From a bacterium (GTDB taxonomy: Bacteria > UBA8248), in the NCBI GenBank assembly GCA_965213685.1, contig CBDBZY010000003.1, forward strand, positions 1 to 64,000: DNA of 64,000 nt, in the 5' to 3' direction. Positions within the stretch are counted from its first letter, which is position 1, and the number at the start of each line of letters is the position of its first letter. This document shows, piece after piece, positions 50,610-64,000 of the stretch. The position numbers and the translations under genes were made by a program. The notes beneath the pieces were generated by a model, which was not told the DNA's origin, made no database searches, and was given only the letters and a program-made list of their open reading frames with translations.

Positions 50610-51692
50610 ATGGCGAGAATCGAACTCAAGGGTTTGCGCAAGGTATTCGGCAGGAACATCGAGGCCGTCAAGAACCTCGATTTCACCATCGAGGAAGGCG
50701 AGTTCGTCGTCATCGTCGGCCCCTCGGGCTGCGGGAAGACGACCACGCTGCGCATGATCGCGGGTTTCGAGGAGCCCACCTCGGGCGAGATCGTCATCGA
50801 CGGGAGGGTCGTCAACGACATCGACCCGGGCGACCGGGGAGTCGGCATGGTCTTCCAGACGCACGCGCTGTTTCCGCACAAGACGGTGGCCGAGAACATC
50901 GAGTTTGGCCCGCGCATGAAGAAGGTGCCCCCGGAGACGCGCAAGAAGCGCGTGCGCGAAGTGGCCGGCGTCGTCCGCATCGGCCACCTCCTCGACAAGC
51001 TGCCCGCCCAGTGCTCGGGCGGCGAGGCCCAGCGCGCAGCATTGGCCCGCACCCTCATCACCGACCCCTCCGCCTTCCTGCTCGACGAGCCGCTCTCCAG
51101 CCTCGACGCCAAGCTGCGCCGCGAGATGCGCGCGGAGATCGACCGCCTCCACGAGGAGTTGCGCAAAACGTTCGTCTACGTCACGCACGACCAGGAGGAG
51201 GCGATGACCCTCGCCGACCGCATCGTGGTGATGCGCCAGGGCGTCATTGAACAGGTGGGCACGCCGCTCGACATCTACAACGACCCGGTGAGCTACTTCG
51301 TGGCTGATTTCTTCGGCAGCCCTTCCATGAACCTCATTGCGGGGCGGGTGGAGAACGCCAACGGCGGCGGCCCCGTGTTCACCGGAGAGGACGCGCGCGT
51401 CGATTTTGCGCTGCCGGACGCCTACGCGGGCGTATCTTCCGGGGCCTACACCCTGGGCGTGCGGCCTGAGCATGTCCTCGTGGGAATCGAGAGCGCGGCC
51501 TTCTCCTGCGACGTTCAGCTCGTCGAGCCGCTCGGCAAGGACACCCTGCTCTACTTCGACCACGGCGCCGATCGCCCGACCATCGCCGTCGTCGAGGCCT
51601 CCGAACGCTTCAAGGCCGGCGAGCGGATCAACGTCGGGTTCGACCCCTCCCGCGTCTATCTCTTCGATTCCGACGGAAAGCGCGTCTCATAG
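50610..51692 (+). CDS. ABC transporter ATP-binding protein (MalK-like)
   Basis: GPSGCGKTT, SGGEAQR, LLDEPLSSLD, YVTHDQEEAM, C-terminal TOBE region. Confidence 0.95.
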   Translation: MARIELKGLRKVFGRNIEAVKNLDFTIEEGEFVVIVGPSGCGKTTTLRMIAGFEEPTSGEIVIDGRVVNDIDPGDRGVGMVFQTHALFPHKTVAENIEFGPRMKKVPPETRKKRVREVAGVVRIGHLLDKLPAQCSGGEAQRAALARTLITDPSAFLLDEPLSSLDAKLRREMRAEIDRLHEELRKTFVYVTHDQEEAMTLADRIVVMRQGVIEQVGTPLDIYNDPVSYFVADFFGSPSMNLIAGRVENANGGGPVFTGEDARVDFALPDAYAGVSSGAYTLGVRPEHVLVGIESAAFSCDVQLVEPLGKDTLLYFDHGADRPTIAVVEASERFKAGERINVGFDPSRVYLFDSDGKRVS

Positions 51693-52155
51693 CGCATCCG
51701 GGGTAGCGGATCGCCGCGCGCGCGATGCGGCGGCGAGAGAGAGGCGCGCGCTTTTGAGCAGCCGCATCCCCGTTCCGCCGAAATCCGGCAACCGCCGGAA
51801 AAAGAACTTCCCCTCCCTCCTCCCTCCGCCGGGGCCAGCCTCCCGGAAGCGTGCGCGTAATGGGGGCGCGATGCGTCTCCTCCTGGGAATGACGATACGC
51901 AGAGCGCGGCGATTCCACGGGGATCACGCGAATCGGGCGGCTGAGGATTTCAGGGGCGGCGGCGCGCGCAGCCTCGCCGTCGGGACGGCCGCCGAATCAT
52001 GCCTGCGGGGAGGATGGTCCTTCCAGGATGCGGAATCGGGCGTTCATCTTCGCCCTGGAATCGAGGGGAGGGGGAGGCGTGCGGGAATGGCCGGCGGGGC
52101 CGCGGCAGGACGTCCGACCGGGATGGTTCTCCTGCCTCCGACGCCTGGAGTCACC

Positions 52156-52189
52156 CATATGGCGAGCGGGTAGCCCCGCTCGCCATATG
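52156..52189 (-). terminator. Perfect 15-bp inverted repeat just downstream of the RiPP precursor genes (terminator or mRNA-stabilising hairpin)
   Basis: CATATGGCGAGCGGG-tagc-CCCGCTCGCCATATG, 17 nt after the precursor stop; no clear U-tract. Confidence 0.6.
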
Positions 52190-52206
52190 TTCAGCAACCG
52201 CTATCA

Positions 52207-52557
52207 CTAGGCGTAGGGATCGTTCCACCTGTCGTTGGCGGTTGACGTCCCGGTGCCCCAGAAGCGCTCCCAGGAGACGCCTCCGGCGACGCTGTCCAGT
52301 TCCGCCTCGCTCAGTTCTCCATCTTTGGGGGCGTTCGCCGCCGCAGCGGGAATGACCACGTGTTTGACGTTCTCGCTGTCCAGCAGGATGGCGACCTTCG
52401 CGCCCGGCGGCACGTCCAGCCCGAGTTCGGCGGCCAGCTCCGGGGCGTCGCCCGCAGCCGCGCGCGCGCTCAGCGCCTCGTCTTCGGCGAGCCTTGTGCC
52501 GATGCTGCGAAGTTGCTCCCAGCGCTCGGTTTTGCTTGTCGGGGTTTTCCTGGTCAT
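52207..52557 (-). CDS. NHLP (nitrile hydratase-like leader) RiPP precursor; predicted core VSWERFWGTGTSTANDRWNDPYA
   Basis: ELGLDVPPGAKVAILLDSENVKHVVIP and ELSEAELDSVAGG double-Gly cleavage motif; AGGAG RBS; adjacent to an NHLM-type exporter. Confidence 0.88.
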   Translation of the reverse strand: MTRKTPTSKTERWEQLRSIGTRLAEDEALSARAAAGDAPELAAELGLDVPPGAKVAILLDSENVKHVVIPAAAANAPKDGELSEAELDSVAGGVSWERFWGTGTSTANDRWNDPYA

Positions 52558-52681
52558 CTCGTCTCTCCTTGCAGGTCGAGGGGGGGATGGGAGTTGCCGG
52601 ATATTTTTTGACGTGGCTTTGGCCTCTAAGGATGAACGTGCGCGTCCGCCGGGCCTGTCCCTGCGCCGCGCGTTCCGTCCG

Positions 52682-52870
52682 TTATTCCCCGAATCCGCTG
52701 CCGCTTCCGTCCGGCAGGTTGTGCCAGCGGTCGAATGACCCGCTAGATGAACGGGGCCTCCGGGGCGCCGAGTGATGGCCGCCCGACACCTCTCCGAGCT
52801 CCTCGTCGCTGACGCTGCCTTCCTCCTCCCGGGTCTTTCCGCTTTCTGTTTCAGAATCGGGTTTCGTCAT
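52682..52870 (-). CDS. Short-leader double-glycine precursor peptide; predicted core HHSAPRRPRSSSGSFDRWHNLPDGSGSGFGE
   Basis: Acidic leader ending VSDEELGEVSGG; AAGGAGG RBS; co-oriented with the NHLP precursor. Confidence 0.8.
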   Translation of the reverse strand: MTKPDSETESGKTREEEGSVSDEELGEVSGGHHSAPRRPRSSSGSFDRWHNLPDGSGSGFGE

Positions 52871-53022
52871 GGTCGCTCCCTCCTTTTGGTTTCCGCGCGC
52901 CCTCTCGCGTTGCCGGGTGCGGGGTTGGAAACAGGAACAATCCGGGAGCCTCCCCTCCGGCGAGGCGCGCGATGCCCGGGTCGCCCCCAGTCGAACTGAA
53001 AAACTCCTCTGAACTCTCTTCT

Positions 53023-53051
53023 AACGTAGTGCTTTGCTCTGCGCGTGTCAA
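53023..53051 (-). promoter_or_regulatory. Sigma70-type promoter TTGACA-N17-TACGTT for the precursor genes
   Basis: Consensus -35, 17-nt spacer and TAnnnT -10, about 150 bp upstream of the first precursor. Confidence 0.55.
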
Positions 53052-53888
53052 TGAAAGAATGGACGAGAATCGTTGCGTCGCCGGGCGATTTTCCGCACCT
53101 GCGCAGTTTCGGGCTGACCGAGAAGCGAGAAGCCCGCGGCGGGCGGCTCCCCTCCCGCGAAAGCGAACTCCCCGCCCCGACAAAACCGCCGGGATGCGCG
53201 CGTCGGAGGCCGGGCGGGAAGGGTCCGCCGCGCGTGCTACGCGCCATTTTCGAGGCCACGCCCCCGGGGTTGGCTCCGCGCGCGGGTCGGTGCGCGCATA
53301 TGGACGCAGACCCGTTTCTCCTTGATCATCCGCTGGCGGGAGTGTAACCTTCTGCGCTGTTCCAGAATGCAGGAGTCGCGGCATGCCGCCCCGCGTGGCG
53401 CGCGCATATGCTGCCTGGGTGGCCGGGCGTTCCGTAAGGCGTCGCGCGGGCCGGGCGGGCCTTCGGCGGAATGGTTTTATGTGCCCCGGTGCGCGTGCGG
53501 TGCGCGTGCGGAGTGGATGGGATTTTTCGAGGAGGGGAATTTCACGCGCGGGGGAGATGGGAGTTTTCGTCTCGCGGCGAGTCGGGCGGCGCGCGCCGCT
53601 AACGCTAAGAGACGGCGTCTCCCCCTGGCTCCAGCCCGGACGCCGTTGCGGGGCCAGGAGCAGGAGGCCCGTCGTCCGGATGATGGGACACGGAATGACG
53701 ACCGCGATGGCACGGAGCGACTGGCGGCCCGTGCGCCGTCGTTCGGAATCCGCAAGAAATCCAGCCCCGATCATGTTTCCCGCCCCCTCGCCGGCTTCGC
53801 CTGGCGCAGCGCGCCGGCGCTTCCTGCGGAGTGTTGCGCGCGCAACCCCGCGCGCAACCCATGCTCTTGACGACGGAGAGACGCGAAG

Positions 53889-55166
53889 ATGGCGCGGAAG
53901 CAGATATTTCGGCAAGCCTCGCTGGATCGCCTCGCGACGCCGGAGCGGCTTGACCGCGCGCTTTTTACGACGACGCCCAAGGGATGGCTGGCGATTCTCG
54001 CCCTGCTGCTCATCGCGGCGGCGACGGTAGCCTGGTCGATCGGGGGCGAGGTTTCGACCTACGTGCAGGCCGAGGGCATTCTCCTGAACCGCGGCGGCAA
54101 GGTGGTCGACGCCGTATCCTCGGGCGTCGGGACGCTCACGCGCATCATCGCCGCCGTCGGACAGACGGTGGAGAAAGGCGACGTCGTGGCGGAGGTCGCC
54201 AACGCGGAGGCGCTGGAGCGCTATCGCAGCGCGCTCGCCCTCGTGGAGGAGCGCGCCGCGGAACTGGAGGATTTTCGGTCGGCGTCGGCGGAGGAAGACG
54301 CGATCATCGAACGCAACGTCGTCCGGCGGCGCGCGCATCTGGAGCGGCTGGAAGGCAGCGACCGCCAGGCGCTCGAGGTGGGCCGCAAGCGCCTCGAAAG
54401 CTATTTGCGGCTTTTCGAGAGGGGCGTCATCGACCAGGTGACCGTGGAGAATAGCCAGCAGGATTACGACGAGCTGCAGCGGGCGCTGTTCGCCACCTTG
54501 CGCGAACGCGACGACCTGGAGGCGAGCGAGGTGAAGCGCAAGAACGATCGCAAGACCCGGCTCAACGAGATGAAGGCCCGCCTCGAGGCGGCCCAGCGCG
54601 GGGCCAGGGAGCTCGAGGCTCTGCTGGGCACCCAGCGGATTCTGGCGCCGGTCTCCGGCCGCGTGACCGAGATCAAGGCGTCGATTGGCGGCTGGCTCGA
54701 GGAGGGGTTCTCCGTCCTCAGCATCAACACGGGCGCGAAACCTCCCGGCGGCGCGGGCGCGACCCCTCTCGAGGCGCTGGTCTACATACCCCCGGACGAC
54801 GGCAAGCAGGTCGAGCGGGGGATGGAGGCGCTGGTCTCCCCGTCCACGGTGCGGCGCGAGGAGTACGGCTCCATCAAGGGGCGGGTGGAGAGCGTCTCCA
54901 CGCTTCCGGTGAGCATGGGGGGCATGGTGGCCGTCCTGCAGAACCGGAGCCTCGCCGAGCGCCTCTCCAGGGGAGGGCCGCCCTATGCGGGCCGGATCGC
55001 GCTGCTGTCCGACCCGGAGACGGCGAGCGGCTTCGCCTGGACTTCGCCCAAGGCCTCGGATCAGTCCCTGTCCTCGGGCACGCTCGCCAGCGTCGAGATA
55101 AAGGTCGGCAGCCAGGCGCCGATCACCCTCGTCGTCCCCCTGCTCAAGGAACTGTTCGGACTGTGA
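53889..55166 (+). CDS. NHLM bacteriocin-system secretion protein (HlyD-like membrane fusion protein)
   Basis: IFRQASLDRLATPERLD, single TM helix, coiled coil, SPSTVRREEYGSIKG, SGFAWTS, PITLVVPLLK. Confidence 0.92.
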   Translation: MARKQIFRQASLDRLATPERLDRALFTTTPKGWLAILALLLIAAATVAWSIGGEVSTYVQAEGILLNRGGKVVDAVSSGVGTLTRIIAAVGQTVEKGDVVAEVANAEALERYRSALALVEERAAELEDFRSASAEEDAIIERNVVRRRAHLERLEGSDRQALEVGRKRLESYLRLFERGVIDQVTVENSQQDYDELQRALFATLRERDDLEASEVKRKNDRKTRLNEMKARLEAAQRGARELEALLGTQRILAPVSGRVTEIKASIGGWLEEGFSVLSINTGAKPPGGAGATPLEALVYIPPDDGKQVERGMEALVSPSTVRREEYGSIKGRVESVSTLPVSMGGMVAVLQNRSLAERLSRGGPPYAGRIALLSDPETASGFAWTSPKASDQSLSSGTLASVEIKVGSQAPITLVVPLLKELFGL

Positions 55167-57358
55167 GCGACGCATCCGACCTGAAGGGCAACCTCCACCG
55201 CCGCCGGGGCGGGCGGCGCGCGACGCCCGCCATCCTGCAGATGGAGGCGACGGAATGCGGCGCCGCCTGCCTCGCCATGATCCTCGCCCACTACGGGCGA
55301 TGGGTGCCGCTCGAGGAGTTGCGGGTGCGCTGCGGCGTGTCGCGCGACGGCAGCAAGGCGGTCAACATGCTGCGCGCGGCGCGCGAATACGACCTCACGG
55401 CGCGGGGCTTCCGACGCCAGGACGCGCGGAGCCTGCTCGACCTCCCCTTCCCGATGATCGTGTTCTGGAATTTCAACCACTTCATCGTGCTCGAGGGAAT
55501 CAAGGGAAACAAGGTCTACATCGTCGACCCGGCCTTTGGTCCGCAGAAGATCACCCTGGAGGAGTTCGACGAGGGGTTCACGGGCATCTGCCTCGGGTTC
55601 GCGCCCGGGCCGGAGTTTCGTCCCAGCGGCGCCCGGCCGAGCGTCTGGCGCGGCCTGTTCTCCCGCCTCGGCAATACGCGCTCCCCGCTGCTCTTCATGC
55701 TGTTGGCGACCCTGGCGCTCGTCGTGCCGGGCCTCGCCATCCCCACCATATCCAAGGTGTTCGTGGACGACGTGCTGATTCCGCGCAGCGAGAGCTTCGT
55801 CGCCCCGCTGCTGATCGGCTTGGGGGCGGCGGCCGTTCTGCAGGGCGCGCTCACCTGGCTGCAGCAGAACTGCCTCGCGCGCACGGAGGCCAAGCTCTCC
55901 CTGGTCAGCACGTCGAAGTTCTTCTGGCACGTGGTCACCCTGCCGATGACGTTCTTCGGCCAGCGCTTCGCCGGCGACCTCGCGAGCCGGGTCGCCTCCA
56001 ACGACAGGATGGCGCGGCTCATCTCGGGCGAGTTCGCCACCAACGCGATCAACATGCTCACGATGGCGATCTACGCCGCCGTGATGCTCTCCTACGACCT
56101 GACGCTCACCCTGGTCACGTTCGCCATGGTCGCCGTCAACCTCCTGGCGCTCCGGTGGGTCTCGCGCGCCCGCGAGCACGGGAACCGCCGCCTGCTCAAG
56201 GAGCAGGGCAAGGTGGCGGGCACCTCGGTGAACGGCCTTTACATGATCGAGACGATCAAGGCCAGCGGAACGGAGGGCGAGTTCTTCGCGCGCTGGGCCG
56301 GCATATACGCCAACGCCCTCTCGGCCCAGCAGGAGCTCGGCCTCTACACGAACCTTCTGAACGTCGTTCCGCCGCTGCTCGCCTCGCTGACCACGGTCGC
56401 CATTCTCGGCGTCGGCGGCCTGCGCATCGTCGATGGCGCGCTCACGATCGGCGGGCTGGTCGCCTACCAGTCCCTGGTGCAGAGCTTCTTCCTGCCGATC
56501 GACGGGCTGGTCCGGTTCGCGGCCAACATCCAGACCGTCAAGGGAGACATCGCCCGCCTCGACGACGTGCTGAACTACGCGCCGGACGAGCGCGTCGTCC
56601 AGAGGATGAGCGAGCGTCATGCGGAGGCGCCGCCGTCCGCGCGCGGCTTCCTCTCCATCGAGGACGTCACGTTCGGCTACAACGCCCAGGAGCCGCCGCT
56701 GATCGAGAACTTCAGCCTGTCGGTCAAACCCGGCCAGCGCGTGGCGCTCGTCGGCGGCTCCGGGAGCGGAAAGTCGACCGTCGGCAAGCTCATCTGCGGC
56801 CTGCTGAAGCCGTGGTCCGGCGTCGTGCGCGTCGACAAGCGCATCATCGACAACATTCCGCCCGGCCACCTGACCGAGGTGATCTCCTATGTGGACCAGG
56901 AGTGCGTGCTGCTCGAGGCCAGCGTGCGCGACAACGTCACCCTCTGGAACACGGCCATCGGCGAGCATCAGCTCACGCAGGCGCTTCGAGACGCCGTGAT
57001 CCATGACGAGATCATGTCCCGCCCCGGCAAATACGAGACGAAGGTCGAGGAGAACGGACGCAACTTCAGCGGCGGCCAGCGCCAGCGCCTGGAGATCGCC
57101 CGCGCGCTCGCCACCGACCCCACCATCCTGGTGCTGGACGAGGCCACCGCCGCCCTGGACCCGCTGACCGAGCTGGCGATCGACGACCGCCTGCGCCAGC
57201 GCGGCTGCACCTGCCTGATCGTGGCCCACCGGCTCAGCACAATCCGGGACGCCGACGAGATCGTGGTCATGGACCGCGGCACCGTCGTGCAGCGCGGGAC
57301 GCACGACGAGCTGATCGCCGAAGACGGCGTCTACCGCACCCTCATCATGTCCAACTGA
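55163..57358 (+). CDS. NHLM-type ABC transporter with a C39 peptidase domain (PCAT)
   Basis: TPAILQMEATECGAACL (catalytic Cys), CGVSRDGSKA, WNFNHF (His), DPA; GGSGSGKST, FSGGQRQRLEIARAL, LDEAT. Confidence 0.95.
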   Translation: MSDASDLKGNLHRRRGGRRATPAILQMEATECGAACLAMILAHYGRWVPLEELRVRCGVSRDGSKAVNMLRAAREYDLTARGFRRQDARSLLDLPFPMIVFWNFNHFIVLEGIKGNKVYIVDPAFGPQKITLEEFDEGFTGICLGFAPGPEFRPSGARPSVWRGLFSRLGNTRSPLLFMLLATLALVVPGLAIPTISKVFVDDVLIPRSESFVAPLLIGLGAAAVLQGALTWLQQNCLARTEAKLSLVSTSKFFWHVVTLPMTFFGQRFAGDLASRVASNDRMARLISGEFATNAINMLTMAIYAAVMLSYDLTLTLVTFAMVAVNLLALRWVSRAREHGNRRLLKEQGKVAGTSVNGLYMIETIKASGTEGEFFARWAGIYANALSAQQELGLYTNLLNVVPPLLASLTTVAILGVGGLRIVDGALTIGGLVAYQSLVQSFFLPIDGLVRFAANIQTVKGDIARLDDVLNYAPDERVVQRMSERHAEAPPSARGFLSIEDVTFGYNAQEPPLIENFSLSVKPGQRVALVGGSGSGKSTVGKLICGLLKPWSGVVRVDKRIIDNIPPGHLTEVISYVDQECVLLEASVRDNVTLWNTAIGEHQLTQALRDAVIHDEIMSRPGKYETKVEENGRNFSGGQRQRLEIARALATDPTILVLDEATAALDPLTELAIDDRLRQRGCTCLIVAHRLSTIRDADEIVVMDRGTVVQRGTHDELIAEDGVYRTLIMSN

Positions 57359-57364
57359 GACGAT

Positions 57365-60306
57365 ATGGCCGCCGACGATATCATCCAGCGCATCCACGGC
57401 TCCCTGTTCTCGGCGGGGGCGCACCGCCCGTTCTTCCTGGACGATCCGGAGCGCGTCGTTTTTGTGCGGCAGGGCTACCTGGACATCTTCGTGGTCGAGG
57501 TGGCGGGCGGGGAGGTCGCCAGCCGCCAGCCGCACGTCACCCGCATCCCTGCGGGCGAGATGGCCTTCGGCGCGGAGAAGCTGGCGGGTGCCGCGTTCGT
57601 CAAGCCCAACGATCTCGCCTTTCTGGCCGTGCCCTCCCAGGACGCGGTTCTCATCGGGGGCAGGCGCGCCGGGCTCACCGGCAAGGAGAATTTCGACCTC
57701 GAAGCCCTGATATGGATCGACAACTGGCTCTTCCGCCTCTCGGAATTTCTGGTGCGCGGCGGCCAGCCGCTTCCGCGCGACGCGGTGCTGCTCGAGGCCG
57801 ACCCGGACGTTCCCTACCCGGCGGGCTCGGTCGTGAGCGCCCACCACTCGGACGTCATCTGGGTTTCGGCCAACCGGCCCATGCGCTTCGCCGGACGCGA
57901 CATGCTGCCCGTGGAGGCGGGCGACATCCAGCCGCTCTCCGAACGGACGTGGTTCGCTCTCGACGAGGACACCGAGGTCACCGCGATGCACACCCCGTCC
58001 GTCTTCGTCTCGGGGCGCCTGTGGGACGCTTTCGACCGCCACAGCCGGCTGGTGCTGGACTACGTGAACGTTTCGTGGACCGAGAAGACCGCCGCGGCAA
58101 AGGAGCGCTACCGGGTTTCCCTTTCCGGCCACGAGGCGGCCAGGAGCAGGATGTTTCAGCACCTAGGCGGCGTGCTGGGGGCGGCGGAGGACGACCGCGC
58201 CCCGGAGGCGGCCGCCCGTGCGTCGCTGCCGGCGGCGGTGAAGATCGTCGCCGAGTCCGTGGGCGCCTCCCTCCACCTCTCGGGCGCCGCGCCGGAGGGA
58301 AGCGATGCGGAGGAGACGATCATGCACCTGGCCGGCCCCTCCGGCATACGCGCGCGGCGGATATCCCTCGCCCCCGGCTGGTGGCGGCGGGACGGGCCGT
58401 CCTTCGTCGGGTTCGCGGCGGAGGGGGAGCGCCCATTCGCCCTGCTCGCGGACGGGCGCGGCCGCTACCGCTCTGTCGACCCGGAGACCGGCGCGTCGGC
58501 CGCCGTGAACCGCGAGGGCGCCGCCCGGCTCGCAAGCCACGGGGTGGTTCTCTATCCTCCGCTTCCGGACCGGATAGAAAGCGGCATGGCGGCGTTGCTC
58601 CACGTTCTGCGCCGGCACAAGCGGGACATCCGCACCGTGCTCTCCATGGCCGTTATGGGCGCCCTGTTCTCCCTGCTGATCCCGATCCTGACGGGTCAAC
58701 TTCTCGCCGAAATCATCCCGCGCGTCGACGTCCCGATGTGGGTCGCTAGCCTCGGCGCGCTTTTTCTCGGCACGATCGGCGCGACGATATTCCAGATCAT
58801 CCAGGCGCTGGCGCTTTTGCGCATCGAGGGCCGGGTGGGCGAAGACCTCCAGTCCGCCGTCTGGAGCCGGCTCCTCTCGCTGCCGGTGCCGTTTTTCCGA
58901 AACTTCGCCGCCGGCGAGCTGGCCGACCGCGCGAACGGCATCTTCGAGATACGCCAGTTGCTGACCAACGCCACCGTCGGCGCGGTGAGCAGCGGCATTT
59001 TCTCGATATCCAGCTACGCGCTCATGTTCTACTACAGCTGGCCGCTCGCGTTGTGCGTCCTCGCGCTGCTTTTCGCTTTTTTTTGGCATGAGCTGGATTT
59101 TCGCGCGCGGCCAGATGGAGCACTACCGCACCGCGTTCCGCACCCAGGGGGTCATCGACGGGCTCGTTTTCCAGATGATCACCGGAATTGCGAAGCTCCG
59201 CGTGGCGAACGCCGAAAACTACGCGCTCGCGCGCTGGGCGGAGCGGTTCGCCGAGCAGAAATACGCGACGCTGGCCGCGCGGCGCTGGGCCGCGGCGCAG
59301 TTTTCCTTCAACAGCATGTTCGTGCCGCTATCCTCGCTCGGCCTCGTCGCCTTCATCTGGTATGCGCTCATCGCCGGCGGCCAGCAGCCCGATTTCGACC
59401 TCGCCGCCTTCCTGTCCTTCAACGCCGCCTTCGGGCAGCTCGCCGCCGGGGTGACGGGGCTGACGGCCGCCTGGACGATAGCGGTGGTGACCGTCCCGCT
59501 TTTCGAGCGCGTCCAGCCCATCTTCGAGTCCCTGCCCGAGAGCGCCGACGGCGGCGAGATCGCCCCGAAAGACCTGACGGGAGACATCGAGTTCGTCAAC
59601 GTAACCTTCCGGTATCTGCCGGAGGGGGCCGAACGCGCTCGACGGGGTGTCCTTCCACATCCGCCCGGGCGATTATGTGGCCTTCGTCGGCGCGTCCGGT
59701 TCGGGCAAATCGACCATCTACCGCCTCATACTCGGCTTCGAGCGGCCCGCCTCGGGCACCGTGTTTCTCGACGGCTACGATCTGCTCAGCCTCGACCTGC
59801 CCAGGGTGCGCAGTCGCATGGGCGTGGTGCTGCAAAACGGCCAGCTCATTCCCGAGAGCATTTTCAAGAACATATCGAGTTCCGCCACGTTGACGGTGGA
59901 GGAGGCCTGGGCGGCCGCCCGGGCCGCCGGCATTGACGAGGACATCCGGGCCATGCCGATGGGCATGCACACCGTCCTTTCCGAGGGGGGCGGGCGGCGG
60001 CAGCCTGTCGGGCGGCCAGCGAAGCAGCGCCTGCTGATCGCCCGGGCGCTCGCCCGCAAGCCGCGCATCGTGCTGTTTGACGAGGCCACCAGCGCGCTGG
60101 ACAACCGCACCCAGGCGATCGTCCAGGCGTCGCTGAACAATCTCAGCATTACCCGCGTGGTGATCGCCCATCGTCTCACCACCGTCCAGGACGCCGACCG
60201 CATCTTCGTGCTGGAGGCGGGGCGGGTGGTCGAGAGCGGGCGATACCGCGAGCTCATGGAGCGCGACGGCGCCTTTGCGAGTCTGGCGAAACGCCAGATG
60301 AGCTAG
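57365..60306 (+). CDS. NHLM-type ABC transporter permease/ATP-binding protein without peptidase; several apparent indels (~59080, ~59626, ~59985-60022)
   Basis: WWRRDGP, SAVWSRLLSLPVPFFR, GIAKLRVA, GASGSGKST, GVVLQNG, FDEATSALDNRTQ. The LSGGQ signature is present but out of frame at ~60005-60019. Confidence 0.88.
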
Positions 60307-60459
60307 GGCGTTTCCGGGCGATTTCCGAGTCCCGTCCGCTTGCGCGGGGTTTCGCCGGAGAGGCGTCTTGCGCTTCGGTTCGTTTCTCCATAATATTTGA
60401 CTGCGCCATACCAACAGAACAAGAGAAAACGACCTTGCCAAAGAGGAGAGGCCAGGGAC

Positions 60460-62625
60460 ATGAAGCCAGCCGATTCAAGCCGCTTTGCCTTGCCCGCCGC
60501 GCGCGCGGCGACGAACCCCCCTGGACGGAGGGACGCCTCCCGGCCCAGCCGCCGCCCGTTCCGCTTTCTCGTCTGCGCGCTTGCTCTGGGATGCGCCTTG
60601 TGCGCACCGCCGGCGGCACAGGCGGGCGATTTCCGGCACGGCGAGCTCGAAGGCAGTCTGGACATCACGCTCTCCCATGGAATCACGTCCCGCGTCGAGG
60701 GCCGCGACAAGCGCCTCATCGGCGAGGGCAACGGCGGTTCCGCACGCTCCGTCAACTCCGATGACGGCAACCTCAACTATGACAGCGGACTGGTGAGCCA
60801 CACGTCGAAGTTCACCGGCGAGCTCGACCTCAATTACCGGAACTTCGGCGCGTTCGCCCGCGTCCACGGCTTTTTCGACTTCGAGAACGACAGGGGGAAG
60901 AGGGCGCGCAACCCCCTGACGGACGAGGCGAAGGACATGGTGGGAAAAGACCTCGACGTGCTGGACCTCTACCTCACCGGCGCGTTCGACCTCGGCGATG
61001 CGCGCATGGACCTGCGGCTCGGCAACCACGTGATCAGCTGGGGCGAGAGCACGTTCATCCAGAACAGCATCAACGTCATCAATCCGTTTGACGTGAACAA
61101 GCTGCGAACGCCGGGTGCGGAGTTGCGCGACGGGCTGGTGCCGGTTCCGATGGTCTCGGCGTCCGCCGCGCTGACGGACGCCCTCTCGGTGGAGGGGTTC
61201 TACCAGACGAAGTGGGAGAAGACGGAGATCGACCCTCCCGGCACCTATTTCTCGACGGGCGACTTCGCCGGCGCGGGCGCGCGAAAGGCCGTGCTCGGTT
61301 GGGGCGCCATTCCCGACACCGGTTTCGGGTTCGGGCCCATCACCCAGGCGATCAACGCCGACCTGCGGCGCTTCTCCGTCACCCACCCCACCCGGGGGGT
61401 TGTGCCGCTGCCCCAAACGCCGCAGGCGAACTTCGACGGCGACTTCCTGAGCGTGCTACGCGGGCGCAGCGACAAACCGGATGACTCCGGCCAGTGGGGG
61501 ATCGCGCTGCGCTACCTCGCGGAGGGCCTCAACAACACCGAGTTCGGCTTCTACTTCATCAATTACCACAGCCGTCTGCCGGTCTTCAGCGCGCGCACCG
61601 GCACGCAGCAGGGGGTATCGAGCGGCCTCTATGCGGCGGCGGCGGTGGGCGCGCCCGGCTCCGCCACCGTCGGCGCCATCACCCAGGCAGTCTCGGCGGA
61701 GGTCTCGTCCGCCGTCAAGGCCGGGTCGATCAGCGCCGCCGAGGCCCCCGGGATCATCCAGGCGCAGGTGAGCGCGCAGGCACAGCGCATCGCGGGCCTC
61801 CTCGCCATCGATCGCTACACGAAGACGGCGGGTTATTTCTTCGAATACCCCGAGGACATCCAGCTTCTGGGCGTCAGCTTCAACACCCAGCTGGGGGCGT
61901 CGGGCTGGGCGTTGCAAGGCGAATACTCCTACCGCCGCGACGCCCCCCTGCAGATTGACGATGTCGAGCTGCTGTTCGCGGCGCTCACGCCGCTGACCGA
62001 GGACCTCGCGAGCGGAACGGCCTGCGCGAAACCCTTTCAGTTCTACTGCCGGAACCAGGTGGGCGCCTTTGGCACCGAGGACTATATTCGCGGCTTCATC
62101 GAGCGCGACGTGAGCCAGGTGCAGGCCACCGCCACGAAGGTTTTCGGCCCCGTCATCGGGGCGAGCGGGCTGGTGTTCGTCGCGGAGGCGGCGCTGATGC
62201 GCGTGCACGACATGCCGGACAAGAGCAAGCTGCGCCTGGAGGGCCCCGGCACGCACACCAGCGGCAGTCCCTTTCACTCCACGGCACAGGGCGCGCACGC
62301 CGGCCTCGAGGCGGAGCCGTCGGATCGGTTCCCGACCGCCACCTCCTACGGCTACCGGGTCGCGGCGCGTCTGGACTACCTCAACGCCATCGGCGCGGTG
62401 AACGTCTCGCCGCGCGTGCAGTTTCAGCACGACGTTCAAGGCACCAGCCCGGGCCCCGGCGGGCCGTTCGTGGAGGGCCGGACCGCGGTGACCCTCGGGC
62501 TGGCGGCGAGCTATCTCAACCGCTGGCATTTCGACCTCAGCTACACCACGTTCGCCGGCGCCCGGCGATATAACCGGCTGAGCGACCGCGACTTCGTCTC
62601 CGCCACCGTCAAATACCTGTTCTAA
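60460..62625 (+). CDS. DUF1302-family outer-membrane protein
   Basis: Signal peptide, NSDDGNLNY, G.HVISWGESTFI, INPFDV..LR.PGAEL, GTYFST.D, NYHSRLP, EYPEDI, DRDFVS, C-terminal Phe. Confidence 0.88.
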   Translation: MKPADSSRFALPAARAATNPPGRRDASRPSRRPFRFLVCALALGCALCAPPAAQAGDFRHGELEGSLDITLSHGITSRVEGRDKRLIGEGNGGSARSVNSDDGNLNYDSGLVSHTSKFTGELDLNYRNFGAFARVHGFFDFENDRGKRARNPLTDEAKDMVGKDLDVLDLYLTGAFDLGDARMDLRLGNHVISWGESTFIQNSINVINPFDVNKLRTPGAELRDGLVPVPMVSASAALTDALSVEGFYQTKWEKTEIDPPGTYFSTGDFAGAGARKAVLGWGAIPDTGFGFGPITQAINADLRRFSVTHPTRGVVPLPQTPQANFDGDFLSVLRGRSDKPDDSGQWGIALRYLAEGLNNTEFGFYFINYHSRLPVFSARTGTQQGVSSGLYAAAAVGAPGSATVGAITQAVSAEVSSAVKAGSISAAEAPGIIQAQVSAQAQRIAGLLAIDRYTKTAGYFFEYPEDIQLLGVSFNTQLGASGWALQGEYSYRRDAPLQIDDVELLFAALTPLTEDLASGTACAKPFQFYCRNQVGAFGTEDYIRGFIERDVSQVQATATKVFGPVIGASGLVFVAEAALMRVHDMPDKSKLRLEGPGTHTSGSPFHSTAQGAHAGLEAEPSDRFPTATSYGYRVAARLDYLNAIGAVNVSPRVQFQHDVQGTSPGPGGPFVEGRTAVTLGLAASYLNRWHFDLSYTTFAGARRYNRLSDRDFVSATVKYLF

Positions 62626-62655
62626 CAGCCCAACAGCCAGGAAAGCGGAGTAGCC

Positions 62656-64000
62656 ATGAAAACCACCATCGTGAGACTCACCATCGCAATCGTCTTGGCG
62701 TGCGTCGCCACCAGTGCCTCCGCCGCGATTTCCGCCGATGCGGTTGCCCGCCTTGGCGGGGACCTCACCCCGCTGGGCGCGGAGCGCGCGGGCAACGCCG
62801 CCGGCACCATCCCGGAGTGGACGGGCGGCCTCACGGAGCCGCCGGCCGGCTATCGGCCCGGCGAGCACCACCGCGACCCCTACGCCGGCGACCGACCGCT
62901 TTTCGTCATCGACGCCAAGAATCTCGACAAACACCGCGACAAGGTGTCGACGGGGCACCAGAGGATGCTCGAGATATATCCGACGTTCCGGCTCCCGGTG
63001 TATCCCACCCGCCGCAGCGCCGCCTCCGCCCCGCAGCGCATCTACGACGCCACCCGGCGCGTCGCCGCGACCGCGAAGCTCGCGGCGGGCGGCAACGGCG
63101 TCGCGGGCGCGACGATAGGGACTCCGTTCCCGATTCCCCGGGACGGCGCGGAGGTGATCTGGAATCACCTGCTGCGCTATCGGGGGGAGGTCGCGAGGCG
63201 CATCATCGGCCAGGCCGCCGTCACGCGCGGCGGGGACTACACGCTCGTCAAGTTCGAGGACGCCTACATCATGCGCTACGCGCAGCCGGGCATGACGGAG
63301 GAGCGGCTCAACAACAAGATGCTGCTCTTCCGCCAGAACGTGCTCGCGCCGGCGCGGCTCGCGGGCAGCATCCTGCTGGTCTACGAGACGATGAACCAGG
63401 TCGCCGAGCCGCGCCACGCCTGGGTGTACAATCCCGGCCAGCGCAGGGTGCGGCGCGCCCCGAACGTCGCCTATGACAACCCGGGCACCGCGGCGGACGG
63501 GCTGCGGACGAGCGATCAGTTCGACATGTTCAACGGCGCTCTCGACCGCTACGACTGGCGGCTGCTCGGCAAGCGGGAGATGTATGTGCCCTACAACAGC
63601 TACAAGCTGCACAGCGACAAGCTGGCCTTCGCCGACATCCTCACCCCGCTGCACATCAATCCGGCGCATGCGCGCTACGAGCTGCACCGGGTCTGGGTGG
63701 TCGAGGCGACGCTCAAGGAGGGGGCGCGCCACATCTACAAGAGGCGCAGGTTCTACGTGGACGAGGACTCCTGGCACGTCCTGCTCGCGGACATCTATGA
63801 CAACAGGGATCAGCTCTGGCGCGTGTCGGAGGCCCACGTCGTCAACTATTACGAAAAATCCGTCGTGTCCTCGACCCTCGAGACGCACATCGATATCCAG
63901 GCGGGCCGCTACCTCGCCCTGGGGCTCAAGAACGAGTTCCCGATGATCGACTTCGACGCGAACCTCACGCCCAATGATTTCACGCCGGCGGCGTTGCGCC
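62656..64000 (+). CDS. DUF1329-family periplasmic protein (runs off the right edge)
   Basis: Not in the ORF track because it has no stop in the window. MKTTIVRLTIAIVLACVATSASA signal peptide, LTPLGAERAGNAAGTIPEWTGG, YPTRR, PFPIP, WNH, YNPGQRRVRRAP, RYELHRVWVVEATLK. Confidence 0.9.
   Translation, partial: MKTTIVRLTIAIVLACVATSASAAISADAVARLGGDLTPLGAERAGNAAGTIPEWTGGLTEPPAGYRPGEHHRDPYAGDRPLFVIDAKNLDKHRDKVSTGHQRMLEIYPTFRLPVYPTRRSAASAPQRIYDATRRVAATAKLAAGGNGVAGATIGTPFPIPRDGAEVIWNHLLRYRGEVARRIIGQAAVTRGGDYTLVKFEDAYIMRYAQPGMTEERLNNKMLLFRQNVLAPARLAGSILLVYETMNQVAEPRHAWVYNPGQRRVRRAPNVAYDNPGTAADGLRTSDQFDMFNGALDRYDWRLLGKREMYVPYNSYKLHSDKLAFADILTPLHINPAHARYELHRVWVVEATLKEGARHIYKRRRFYVDEDSWHVLLADIYDNRDQLWRVSEAHVVNYYEKSVVSSTLETHIDIQAGRYLALGLKNEFPMIDFDANLTPNDFTPAALR

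Follow-up and report, generated by a model that had tools for sequence, protein, structure and literature searches.

Why should two small peptides with unrelated leaders, encoded side by side next to a single export cassette, carry one and the same short motif? The question is raised by a locus on contig CBDBZY010000003.1 of the bacterial assembly GCA_965213685.1 (GTDB lineage UBA8248), within the stretch of 64,000 nucleotides that was analysed here and that is called the window below. An earlier note on this DNA had described two double-glycine precursor genes, one with an NHLP-type and one with a short leader, whose cores share the motif D-R-W-x-[DN], and had proposed from them a Trp-centred family of peptides made by ribosomes and modified after translation (RiPPs). 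In our analysis the motif is probably shared for a reason and not by chance, and we lean toward a minimal locus of the NHLP kind, made up of peptide precursors and export genes only, whose peptides would be exported without modification, or after modification by distally encoded enzymes only. We would class the locus as a system of a known kind that harbours a new core family.

Two precursor genes with one predicted processing site

The two small open reading frames (ORFs) lie in tandem on the minus strand at 52207-52870 (Table 1), and their translation returned both double-glycine (GG) precursors and both cores as first quoted. The cores are free of Cys, as had been claimed, and so are the leaders. 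The ORFs are separated by a spacer of 124 nt, with AGGAGG standing 8 nt upstream of the ATG of the short ORF and AAGGAG 7 nt upstream of that of the NHLP ORF. The short leader ends in the signature V-S-D-E-E-L-G-E-V-S-G-G and the NHLP leader in L-S-E-A-E-L-D-S-V-A-G-G (residues 82-93), and the site L/V-S-x-x-E-L-x-x-V-x-G-G is common to both. Downstream of it, each core passes from a run of Ser, Thr and Gly to DRW, then to [NH][DN], and then to a Pro. Read from their sequences, the cores are hydrophilic, of near-neutral net charge and without a hydrophobic or amphipathic stretch; the short core is rich in Arg, Ser and Gly and has no Tyr, and the C-terminal residues are Ala and Glu, neither core ending in Trp. 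When all six frames of the genome bin that holds the window (G000, 7.97 Mb; bin-wide searches cover the DNA of two organisms, as described below) were searched with a regular expression for double-glycine leaders with a tail of at most 80 aa, the two matches returned were these precursors.

How secure are the two genes? The NHLP precursor matches the family profile TIGR03793 with an E-value of 3.1e-7 over profile positions 29-77 of 77, and the assignment made in the earlier note stands in that respect; it falls short in another, the score of 30.1 bits (30.5 bits in a genome-wide scan) lying below the curated cut-off of 50.9 bits. The precursor also has traits of the family: Gly-Gly follows L-x-x-x-x-L, the metal-binding Cys cluster of nitrile hydratase (NHase) is missing, and the transport genes TIGR03794, TIGR03796 and TIGR03797 begin 1.0 kb from the two-gene unit, in divergent orientation. 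Strain differences bear on both genes. In run X4, which belongs to another study, one contig spans 52145-52979 and differs from the window by 11 substitutions and 7 inserted letters. Positions are given for 10 of the 11 substitutions: seven are in the NHLP leader (six of them synonymous third-position changes, the other D37N), three are in the 124-nt spacer together with both insertions, and none is in the NHLP core or the short ORF, each of which can hold at most one change. At the level of sequence comparison this shows the NHLP gene to be under purifying selection; for the short ORF, it is weakly suggestive of the same.

What speaks for the short ORF as a gene is mainly the leader, which is canonical, together with the ribosome-binding site and the position of the ORF. 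Its lone weak family match, to the Lactococcin family (E 0.019), covers the leader, and a search of the ESM Atlas gave a top score of 0.87, which is a lead only. Neither 5.8 billion proteins nor 61 related genomes yielded a homologue. The G+C content at third codon positions (GC3) is 0.71, a weak codon signature, compared with 0.83 in the NHLP ORF and 0.88-0.95 in neighbouring genes. The locus turns up again, slightly altered, in runs from three studies; eight runs contain the stretch, and no RNA run is listed among these eight.

The shared motif

Taken as a pair, the two cores are alike to a marginal degree. Among 100,000 shuffles, a shared tripeptide appeared in 15.5% and a shared tripeptide containing Trp in 3.4%; the best ungapped BLOSUM62 segment between the cores scores 25, a value that 6.0% of 20,000 shuffles attain (p ~0.06). 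Against the short core, 15 of the 144 other parsed NHLP cores score at least 25, and six of the cores that do so are unrelated. The p value and the six unrelated cores, along with the missing homologues and the low GC3, speak for the view that the short ORF is not a gene at all, or encodes an unrelated GG peptide, and that DRW recurs in it by chance.

We consider such a coincidence quite improbable. The short ORF combines a canonical GG leader with a strong ribosome-binding site, 1 kb from an operon for a Peptidase-C39/permease/ATPase ABC exporter (PCAT), and none of the ten strain differences of given position falls in it while the adjacent spacer varies. Shuffling the short core 1,000,000 times produced DRW in 0.87% of cases (a probability of 0.0087) and the extended motif, DRW.N.P or DRWNDP, in 0.0027% (2.7e-5). 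The pattern DRW[NH][DN], which was framed post hoc, occurs at four sites in the six-frame translation of the bin (15.9 million residues), and two of the four are these cores.

The motif can also be defined independently of the pair, since it emerged from an exhaustive HMMER search for homologues of the NHLP peptide. That search returned 145 proteins at E <= 1e-3, three of them at E <= 1e-10. P0002 (91% identical to the NHLP precursor) and P0007 (51% identical) keep two blocks, W-E-x-I-W-G and D-R-W-N-D-P, while the residues between the blocks vary, and in A3, which aligns the three NHLP proteins closest to each other in this set, the residues D109, R110, W111, N112, D113 and P114 are invariant. 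The earlier note would have counted its reading refuted if DRW were not conserved among homologous precursors; it is. In P0006, whose leader is doubled, the first block is retained and G-D-W-F-Q-N stands where the second would be. P0150 carries W-W-N-D-P, and its cluster mate P0015 W-W-N-D-S. P0112 represents a cluster of seven sequences, and NCBI labels one of them as an NHLP precursor from Acidobacteriota; the P0112 core has S-W at the start and N-D-R-W-N-N-A-P further on, and it is this DRWNNAP that forms the top match of the short core among the 144 parsed cores, with a score of 35. A word-based search found P0002 and two weak matches for the NHLP peptide and zero for the short peptide.

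It is from the conservation in the family, the match to P0112 and the short-core shuffles that the motif is judged to be probably shared for a reason. The NHLP core is unusually informative in this respect: its motif of six residues, unvarying across a rare family, is met again in a second phylum and in a co-transcribed peptide whose leader is different. We take D-R-W-[NH]-[DN]-(x)-P to be the functional epitope common to both products, recognized by a receptor or target or by a tailoring enzyme, because it is judged to be the part under selection; it would correspond to the invariant portion of the rare NHLP cores of the form W-E-x-[IF]-W-G ... D-R-W-N-D-P.

A minimal export locus or a tailored peptide?

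In the account that we lean toward, the starting point is what sequence and family models show: a single minus-strand unit encodes first the short-leader GG peptide and then the NHLP-leader peptide, and the divergent operon supplies an HlyD adaptor, a C39-peptidase ABC exporter and a second ABC subunit. By analogy with studied systems, the C39 domain would read the element L/V-x-x-x-x-L-x-x-V-x-G-G (-12 to -1) that is common to both leaders and would cut after Gly-Gly, and the resulting 31-mer and 23-mer would pass through an HlyD-bridged channel. The predicted cleavage is modelled on work with double-glycine proteases, as far as it is described in the available part of PMC6363468, and on Haft et al. 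2010 (PMC2887384), who, in the portion of that paper at hand, report that NHLP precursors co-occur and cluster with TIGR03794, TIGR03796 and TIGR03797, read the combination as a cleave-and-export device, and describe NHLP members also in species without known modifying enzymes.

Export without local modification is favoured by the absence of any tailoring enzyme encoded nearby. The earlier note had pointed to radical SAM triceptide synthases, Trp brominases, P450 and YcaO enzymes as possible partners. Within ~12 kb on either side (neighbours located from 40 to 72 kb were covered) no radical SAM, YcaO, LanM, P450, halogenase, ATP-grasp or RiPP-type oxygenase gene was found, and that link is not borne out at the locus. 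Nor did co-occurrence across the bin lend it support: the bin has no YcaO and no Trp_halogenase match (LanM and LanC were outside the bin-wide search), and its one P450 gene and one radical-SAM/SPASM gene lie together on another contig, C31.

Could the modifying enzymes nonetheless come from other parts of the genome? That the two precursors represent a new Trp/Asp/Asn-centred RiPP family, in which the motif is tailored before export by distantly encoded enzymes such as Fe(II)/2-oxoglutarate hydroxylases, P450 or radical SAM enzymes, is a possibility that we rate as real though doubtful. It would account for a motif that stays invariant in the closest homologues while the flanking core residues change, and it would give the long leader a role, long NHLP leaders normally serving maturases according to the available text of PMC10858898. 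The island on C31 (L090, C31:348700-357000) might be a source of such enzymes, as it carries an arylsulfotransferase, a P450, a luciferase-like monooxygenase, PhyH, a fatty-acid hydroxylase, the radical SAM/SPASM gene and an MFS_2 transporter, and has a lower GC content than its flanks (56-60% vs 66-67%). However, the regular expression for double-glycine leaders found no precursor gene in the island and no link to the window was found; its small-molecule tailoring look could equally reflect lipid or sulfate-ester metabolism, which suits its content as well as peptide tailoring does.

The only lead to a tailoring enzyme comes from Acidobacteriota genome G176. There (L082, C1:1183500-1203400) an NHLP precursor 70% identical to P0112, with core motifs DRVND and DRVYD, belongs to a locus whose genes follow one another as PhyH dioxygenase, the precursor itself, short HlyD-like ORF, C39 ABC exporter, 977-aa ABC subunit, JmjC_2 oxygenase. 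The core is very acidic and rich in Asp and Asn, and two Fe(II)/2-oxoglutarate oxygenases placed around an Asp/Asn/Arg-rich core suggest hydroxylation, which makes L082 a candidate cluster for a hydroxylated NHLP peptide. From here one may speculate, with little confidence, that the D-R-W-N-[DN]-(x)-P peptides form a new RiPP class, secreted and spread over several phyla, with members in this genus and in Acidobacteriota, that the motif is a substrate for PhyH or JmjC oxygenases (through hydroxylation of Asp/Asn, Arg or Trp) or another tailoring site, and that two unrelated leaders, an NHLP and a short GG one, deliver one motif to one pathway and one exporter. Against a tailored family in our bin, the match of the G176 PhyH there is weak and interrupted, lying on C50 in unrelated context, and for the G176 JmjC protein there is none; moreover, the G176 core has Val at the Trp position, so that Trp is not required in that locus. 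G176 holds further NHLP precursors at L078-L081, with Trp-containing cores of 6-8 residues after Gly-Gly, one of which ends in three Trp.

Several observations weigh against a locus of precursors and export genes only. A 93-aa NHLP leader is unexplained if the system is one of transport alone, given that characterised long NHLP leaders dock maturases. No gene for a receptor, for immunity or for a regulator came to light, and the second ABC gene is twice frameshifted in this assembly, one of the two breaks being found in run X1 also. The marginal likeness of the two cores, the failure to find a homologue of the short precursor and the weak codon signature of its ORF count on the same side. Finally, the high-GC part of the bin, to which the window belongs, amounts to only ~3 Mb in many contigs, and distal maturases could therefore be missed. 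It should be added that export of unmodified or distally modified peptides, the tailored family and the chance resemblance are overlapping readings.

Signal or microcin-like pair?

If the peptides are exported as proposed, they may act outside the cell, as a signal or as a narrow-spectrum pair of the microcin kind. One version of the latter is a class II microcin-like two-peptide bacteriocin, unmodified, exported through PCAT and HlyD, and killing close relatives. The layout found here, with a membrane-fusion protein and a C39 ABC exporter encoded beside GG-leader peptides, is what such a system would look like, class II microcins are reported to be widespread and diverse in sequence (PMC12219008 and PMC9746304, in the parts available), and the cassette is patchy within the genus, as judged from HlyD matches in 2 of the 22 genomes besides G000, 51% identical. 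Yet the cores have the hydrophilic, near-neutral composition noted above, no small membrane-protein immunity gene is evident, the gap between the two operons lacking a coding signal, and an NHLP leader of 93 aa is atypical for microcins. On balance a bacteriocin of this kind seems unlikely. Since the cores offer no membrane-active stretch, a receptor-binding signal or a receptor-mediated microcin would fit better than a pore former.

Relation to known systems

The closest relatives in kind are the NHLP export loci of Haft et al. Like them, the locus has an NHase-alpha-like leader without metal-binding Cys, L-x-x-x-x-L followed by G-G, a short variable core and the three-gene cassette; it differs in that the leader scores below the cut-off, with only the C-terminal two thirds of the model matched, in that no maturase lies nearby, and in having another precursor, whose short leader is unrelated, in the same transcription unit. 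Of four features tested, three would place it with those loci. Transport-only cassettes with NHLP precursors beside them have been on record since 2010, and these precursors are still chemically uncharacterised. The unusual feature here is that one motif is carried by two unrelated leader types, and the locus could show whether orphan NHLP peptides are modified, whether one PCAT serves two leader types, and whether Acidobacteriota oxygenases act on the motif.

Several better-known families can be set beside it. With a core that lacks Cys and has few Ser/Thr, and with no YcaO match in the bin, the NHLP precursor is neither a TOMM nor a lanthipeptide substrate. The proteusins, including srp, share an NHLP-type leader with L-x-x-x-x-L at -12 to -7 before Gly-Gly, and in the portion of the srp report available (PMC10858898) the SrpE core LCCCW undergoes azoline formation and bromination of its C-terminal Trp; in our locus, there is no Cys, no C-terminal Trp and no YcaO or halogenase match in the bin. 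Polytheonamide-type clusters have a radical SAM epimerase and a methyltransferase, neither of which is present here, and in contrast to triceptide loci no radical SAM/SPASM maturase is found among the neighbours, the bin's one SPASM gene being that on C31.

For the short precursor, the nearest likenesses are the class II microcins and the GG bacteriocins and pheromones of Gram-positive bacteria, with which it shares an E-L-x-x-V-x-G-G leader beside a PCAT and a membrane-fusion protein. It differs from them in its hydrophilic Arg/Ser/Gly-rich core, in the lack of any match to their families and of an immunity gene, and in its 31-aa leader, which is longer than is typical of class II microcins. 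RaxX of Xanthomonas, a sulfated double-glycine peptide, leaves the cell through a PCAT with a membrane-fusion protein and serves as a signal, not a toxin. Judged by description only, it resembles the short precursor in being a GG-leader precursor of ~60 aa with a hydrophilic, Pro/Gly/His-rich core and Gram-negative PCAT export; there is, however, no sulfotransferase in our locus and no Tyr in the short core. No description of the core family or of the DRW motif was found in the literature, supplementary files being outside the search, in agreement with the earlier suggestion that the family is undescribed.

Distribution and host

The locus is rare. Among 51 genomes of the phylum there is no DRW-type NHLP precursor besides that in G000, the next best match scoring 58 bits vs 168.7. 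A scan of genome contigs with the HlyD protein found four distant loci, at most 37% identical, only one of which (L040) has a GG peptide, without DRW. A metagenome scan with the two core motifs gave 293 pattern matches and zero relatives, and a second one, with the HlyD query, three distant loci and nothing close. In G008 (L088) and G022 (L089), the two genus members with the 51%-identical cassette, the genes ahead of it are two for FrsA-like/S9 hydrolases, a VapBC-like pair and one for a nucleotidyltransferase, and no GG peptide was found near the cassette.

Other members of the genus have a different NHLP, present as 11 loci in 11 genomes (L007-L013, L015-L017), with a leader ending V-V-A-G. 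Its 18-aa core has two Trp and follows [STA]-Q-x-[WM]-Q-[DEQ]-F-A-N-A-W-N-[SN]-L-N-Q-N-S, which aligns loosely with S-W-E-R-F ... A-N-D-R-W-N-D of our precursor; this is a resemblance, core homology not being demonstrated. At L034, the one annotated locus of this genus NHLP, there is no export cassette or recognisable maturase within 10 kb. Two ORFs beside it, of 746 and 409 aa, were considered and set aside, as neither has a family match or a counterpart in G000 and both may be spurious. One genome of the genus, G010, has 34 NHLP-profile matches at E <= 1e-6 on many contigs, a large paralogous expansion, and in several members open frames of 435-465 aa, or in one case 533 aa, contain an NHLP-like segment.

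The bin itself is mixed. Its contigs fall into a group of 42-54% GC and ~5 Mb, including a contig of 1.6 Mb, and a group of 61-69% GC and ~3 Mb, with one further contig of 2.5 kb at 33% GC. The contig of the window (C3) has 65.9% GC and encodes a ThiC protein 87-91% identical to those of all 18 genus members searched, from which the high-GC part is assigned to the named genus. The other TIGR03793 matches in the bin are explained by a genuine nitrile hydratase alpha subunit on C44 (L001 997-1764), which was rejected as a second precursor. It is of the cobalt type, 255 aa long, with a His-rich N-terminus and a C-T-L-C-S-C site.

Features of the window and neighbouring genes

Table 1. Positions of the precursor genes, motifs, export genes and associated elements within the window.
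Feature	Position	Strand	Remarks
Short-leader double-glycine precursor	52682..52870	-	62 aa; 31-aa leader ending VSGG; 31-aa core at 52685-52777
NHLP-type precursor	52207..52557	-	116 aa; 93-aa leader ending VAGG; 23-aa core at 52210-52278
Motif D-R-W-H-N-L-P, short core	52712..52732	-	aligns with DRWNNAP of P0112, score 35
Motif D-R-W-N-D-P, NHLP core	52216..52233	-	invariant in alignment A3
Perfect 15-bp stem-loop	52156..52189	-	17 nt past the NHLP stop codon; without U-tract
1-kb non-coding gap	52871..53888	.	between the divergent precursor and export operons
HlyD-type membrane-fusion protein, NHLP export	53889..55166	+	TIGR03794, 244.1 bits vs cut-off 156.2
Peptidase-C39/permease/ATPase ABC exporter (PCAT)	55163..57358	+	TIGR03796, 1021.1 bits vs cut-off 853.3; Pfam Peptidase_C39, ABC_membrane, ABC_tran
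Second ABC permease/ATPase, no peptidase domain	57365..60306	+	TIGR03797 in three frames

The stem-loop behind the NHLP gene has a minimum free energy of -39.3 kcal/mol (z -4.87), and none of 200 shuffles folds equally well. It was not called in a scan for consensus terminators, which returned zero on the minus strand, and it is probably the end of the two-gene transcript. For a stretch between genes, the gap separating the two operons is of unusual length, and regulatory elements may lie in it. The ORFs in it have a GC3 of 0.62-0.77 and no coding signature, and none has the look of an immunity gene with such a signature; an Rfam search of 51600-54000 gave no match and no sigma-70 consensus promoter was found in the gap region. 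Presumably promoters and regulatory sites are located there.

The three frames of the second ABC gene match TIGR03797 at profile positions 4-286, 299-466 and 472-686, with 238.3, 128.7 and 371.5 bits (cut-off 709.4). The frame is lost at a run of eight T near 59077 and at a run of five G near 59624 (59070-59085 and 59617-59632). Contigs of run X5 have one base fewer at both sites and a contig of run X6 at the second, and deletion of both bases yields an open frame of 979 aa, close to the 977-aa counterpart in the Acidobacteriota locus. At 59077 the reading of the window is shared by a contig of depth 2 from run X1, possibly the source sample. Either the breaks are sequencing errors in homopolymers, or the defect is specific to the strain.

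Upstream of the locus lie genes for a short-chain dehydrogenase, fumarylacetoacetate hydrolase, HpcH aldolase, glyoxalase, a luciferase-like monooxygenase, an alcohol dehydrogenase and a sugar ABC importer. Downstream are genes for DUF1302, DUF1329, a BNR protein, an MMPL transporter, another luciferase-like monooxygenase and ThiC. The DUF1302, DUF1329, BNR/YCF48-like and MMPL/RND genes form a group directly after the export cassette, at 60397-64000 and beyond (L084 14-3374), and this group is probably an unrelated outer-membrane and transport module.

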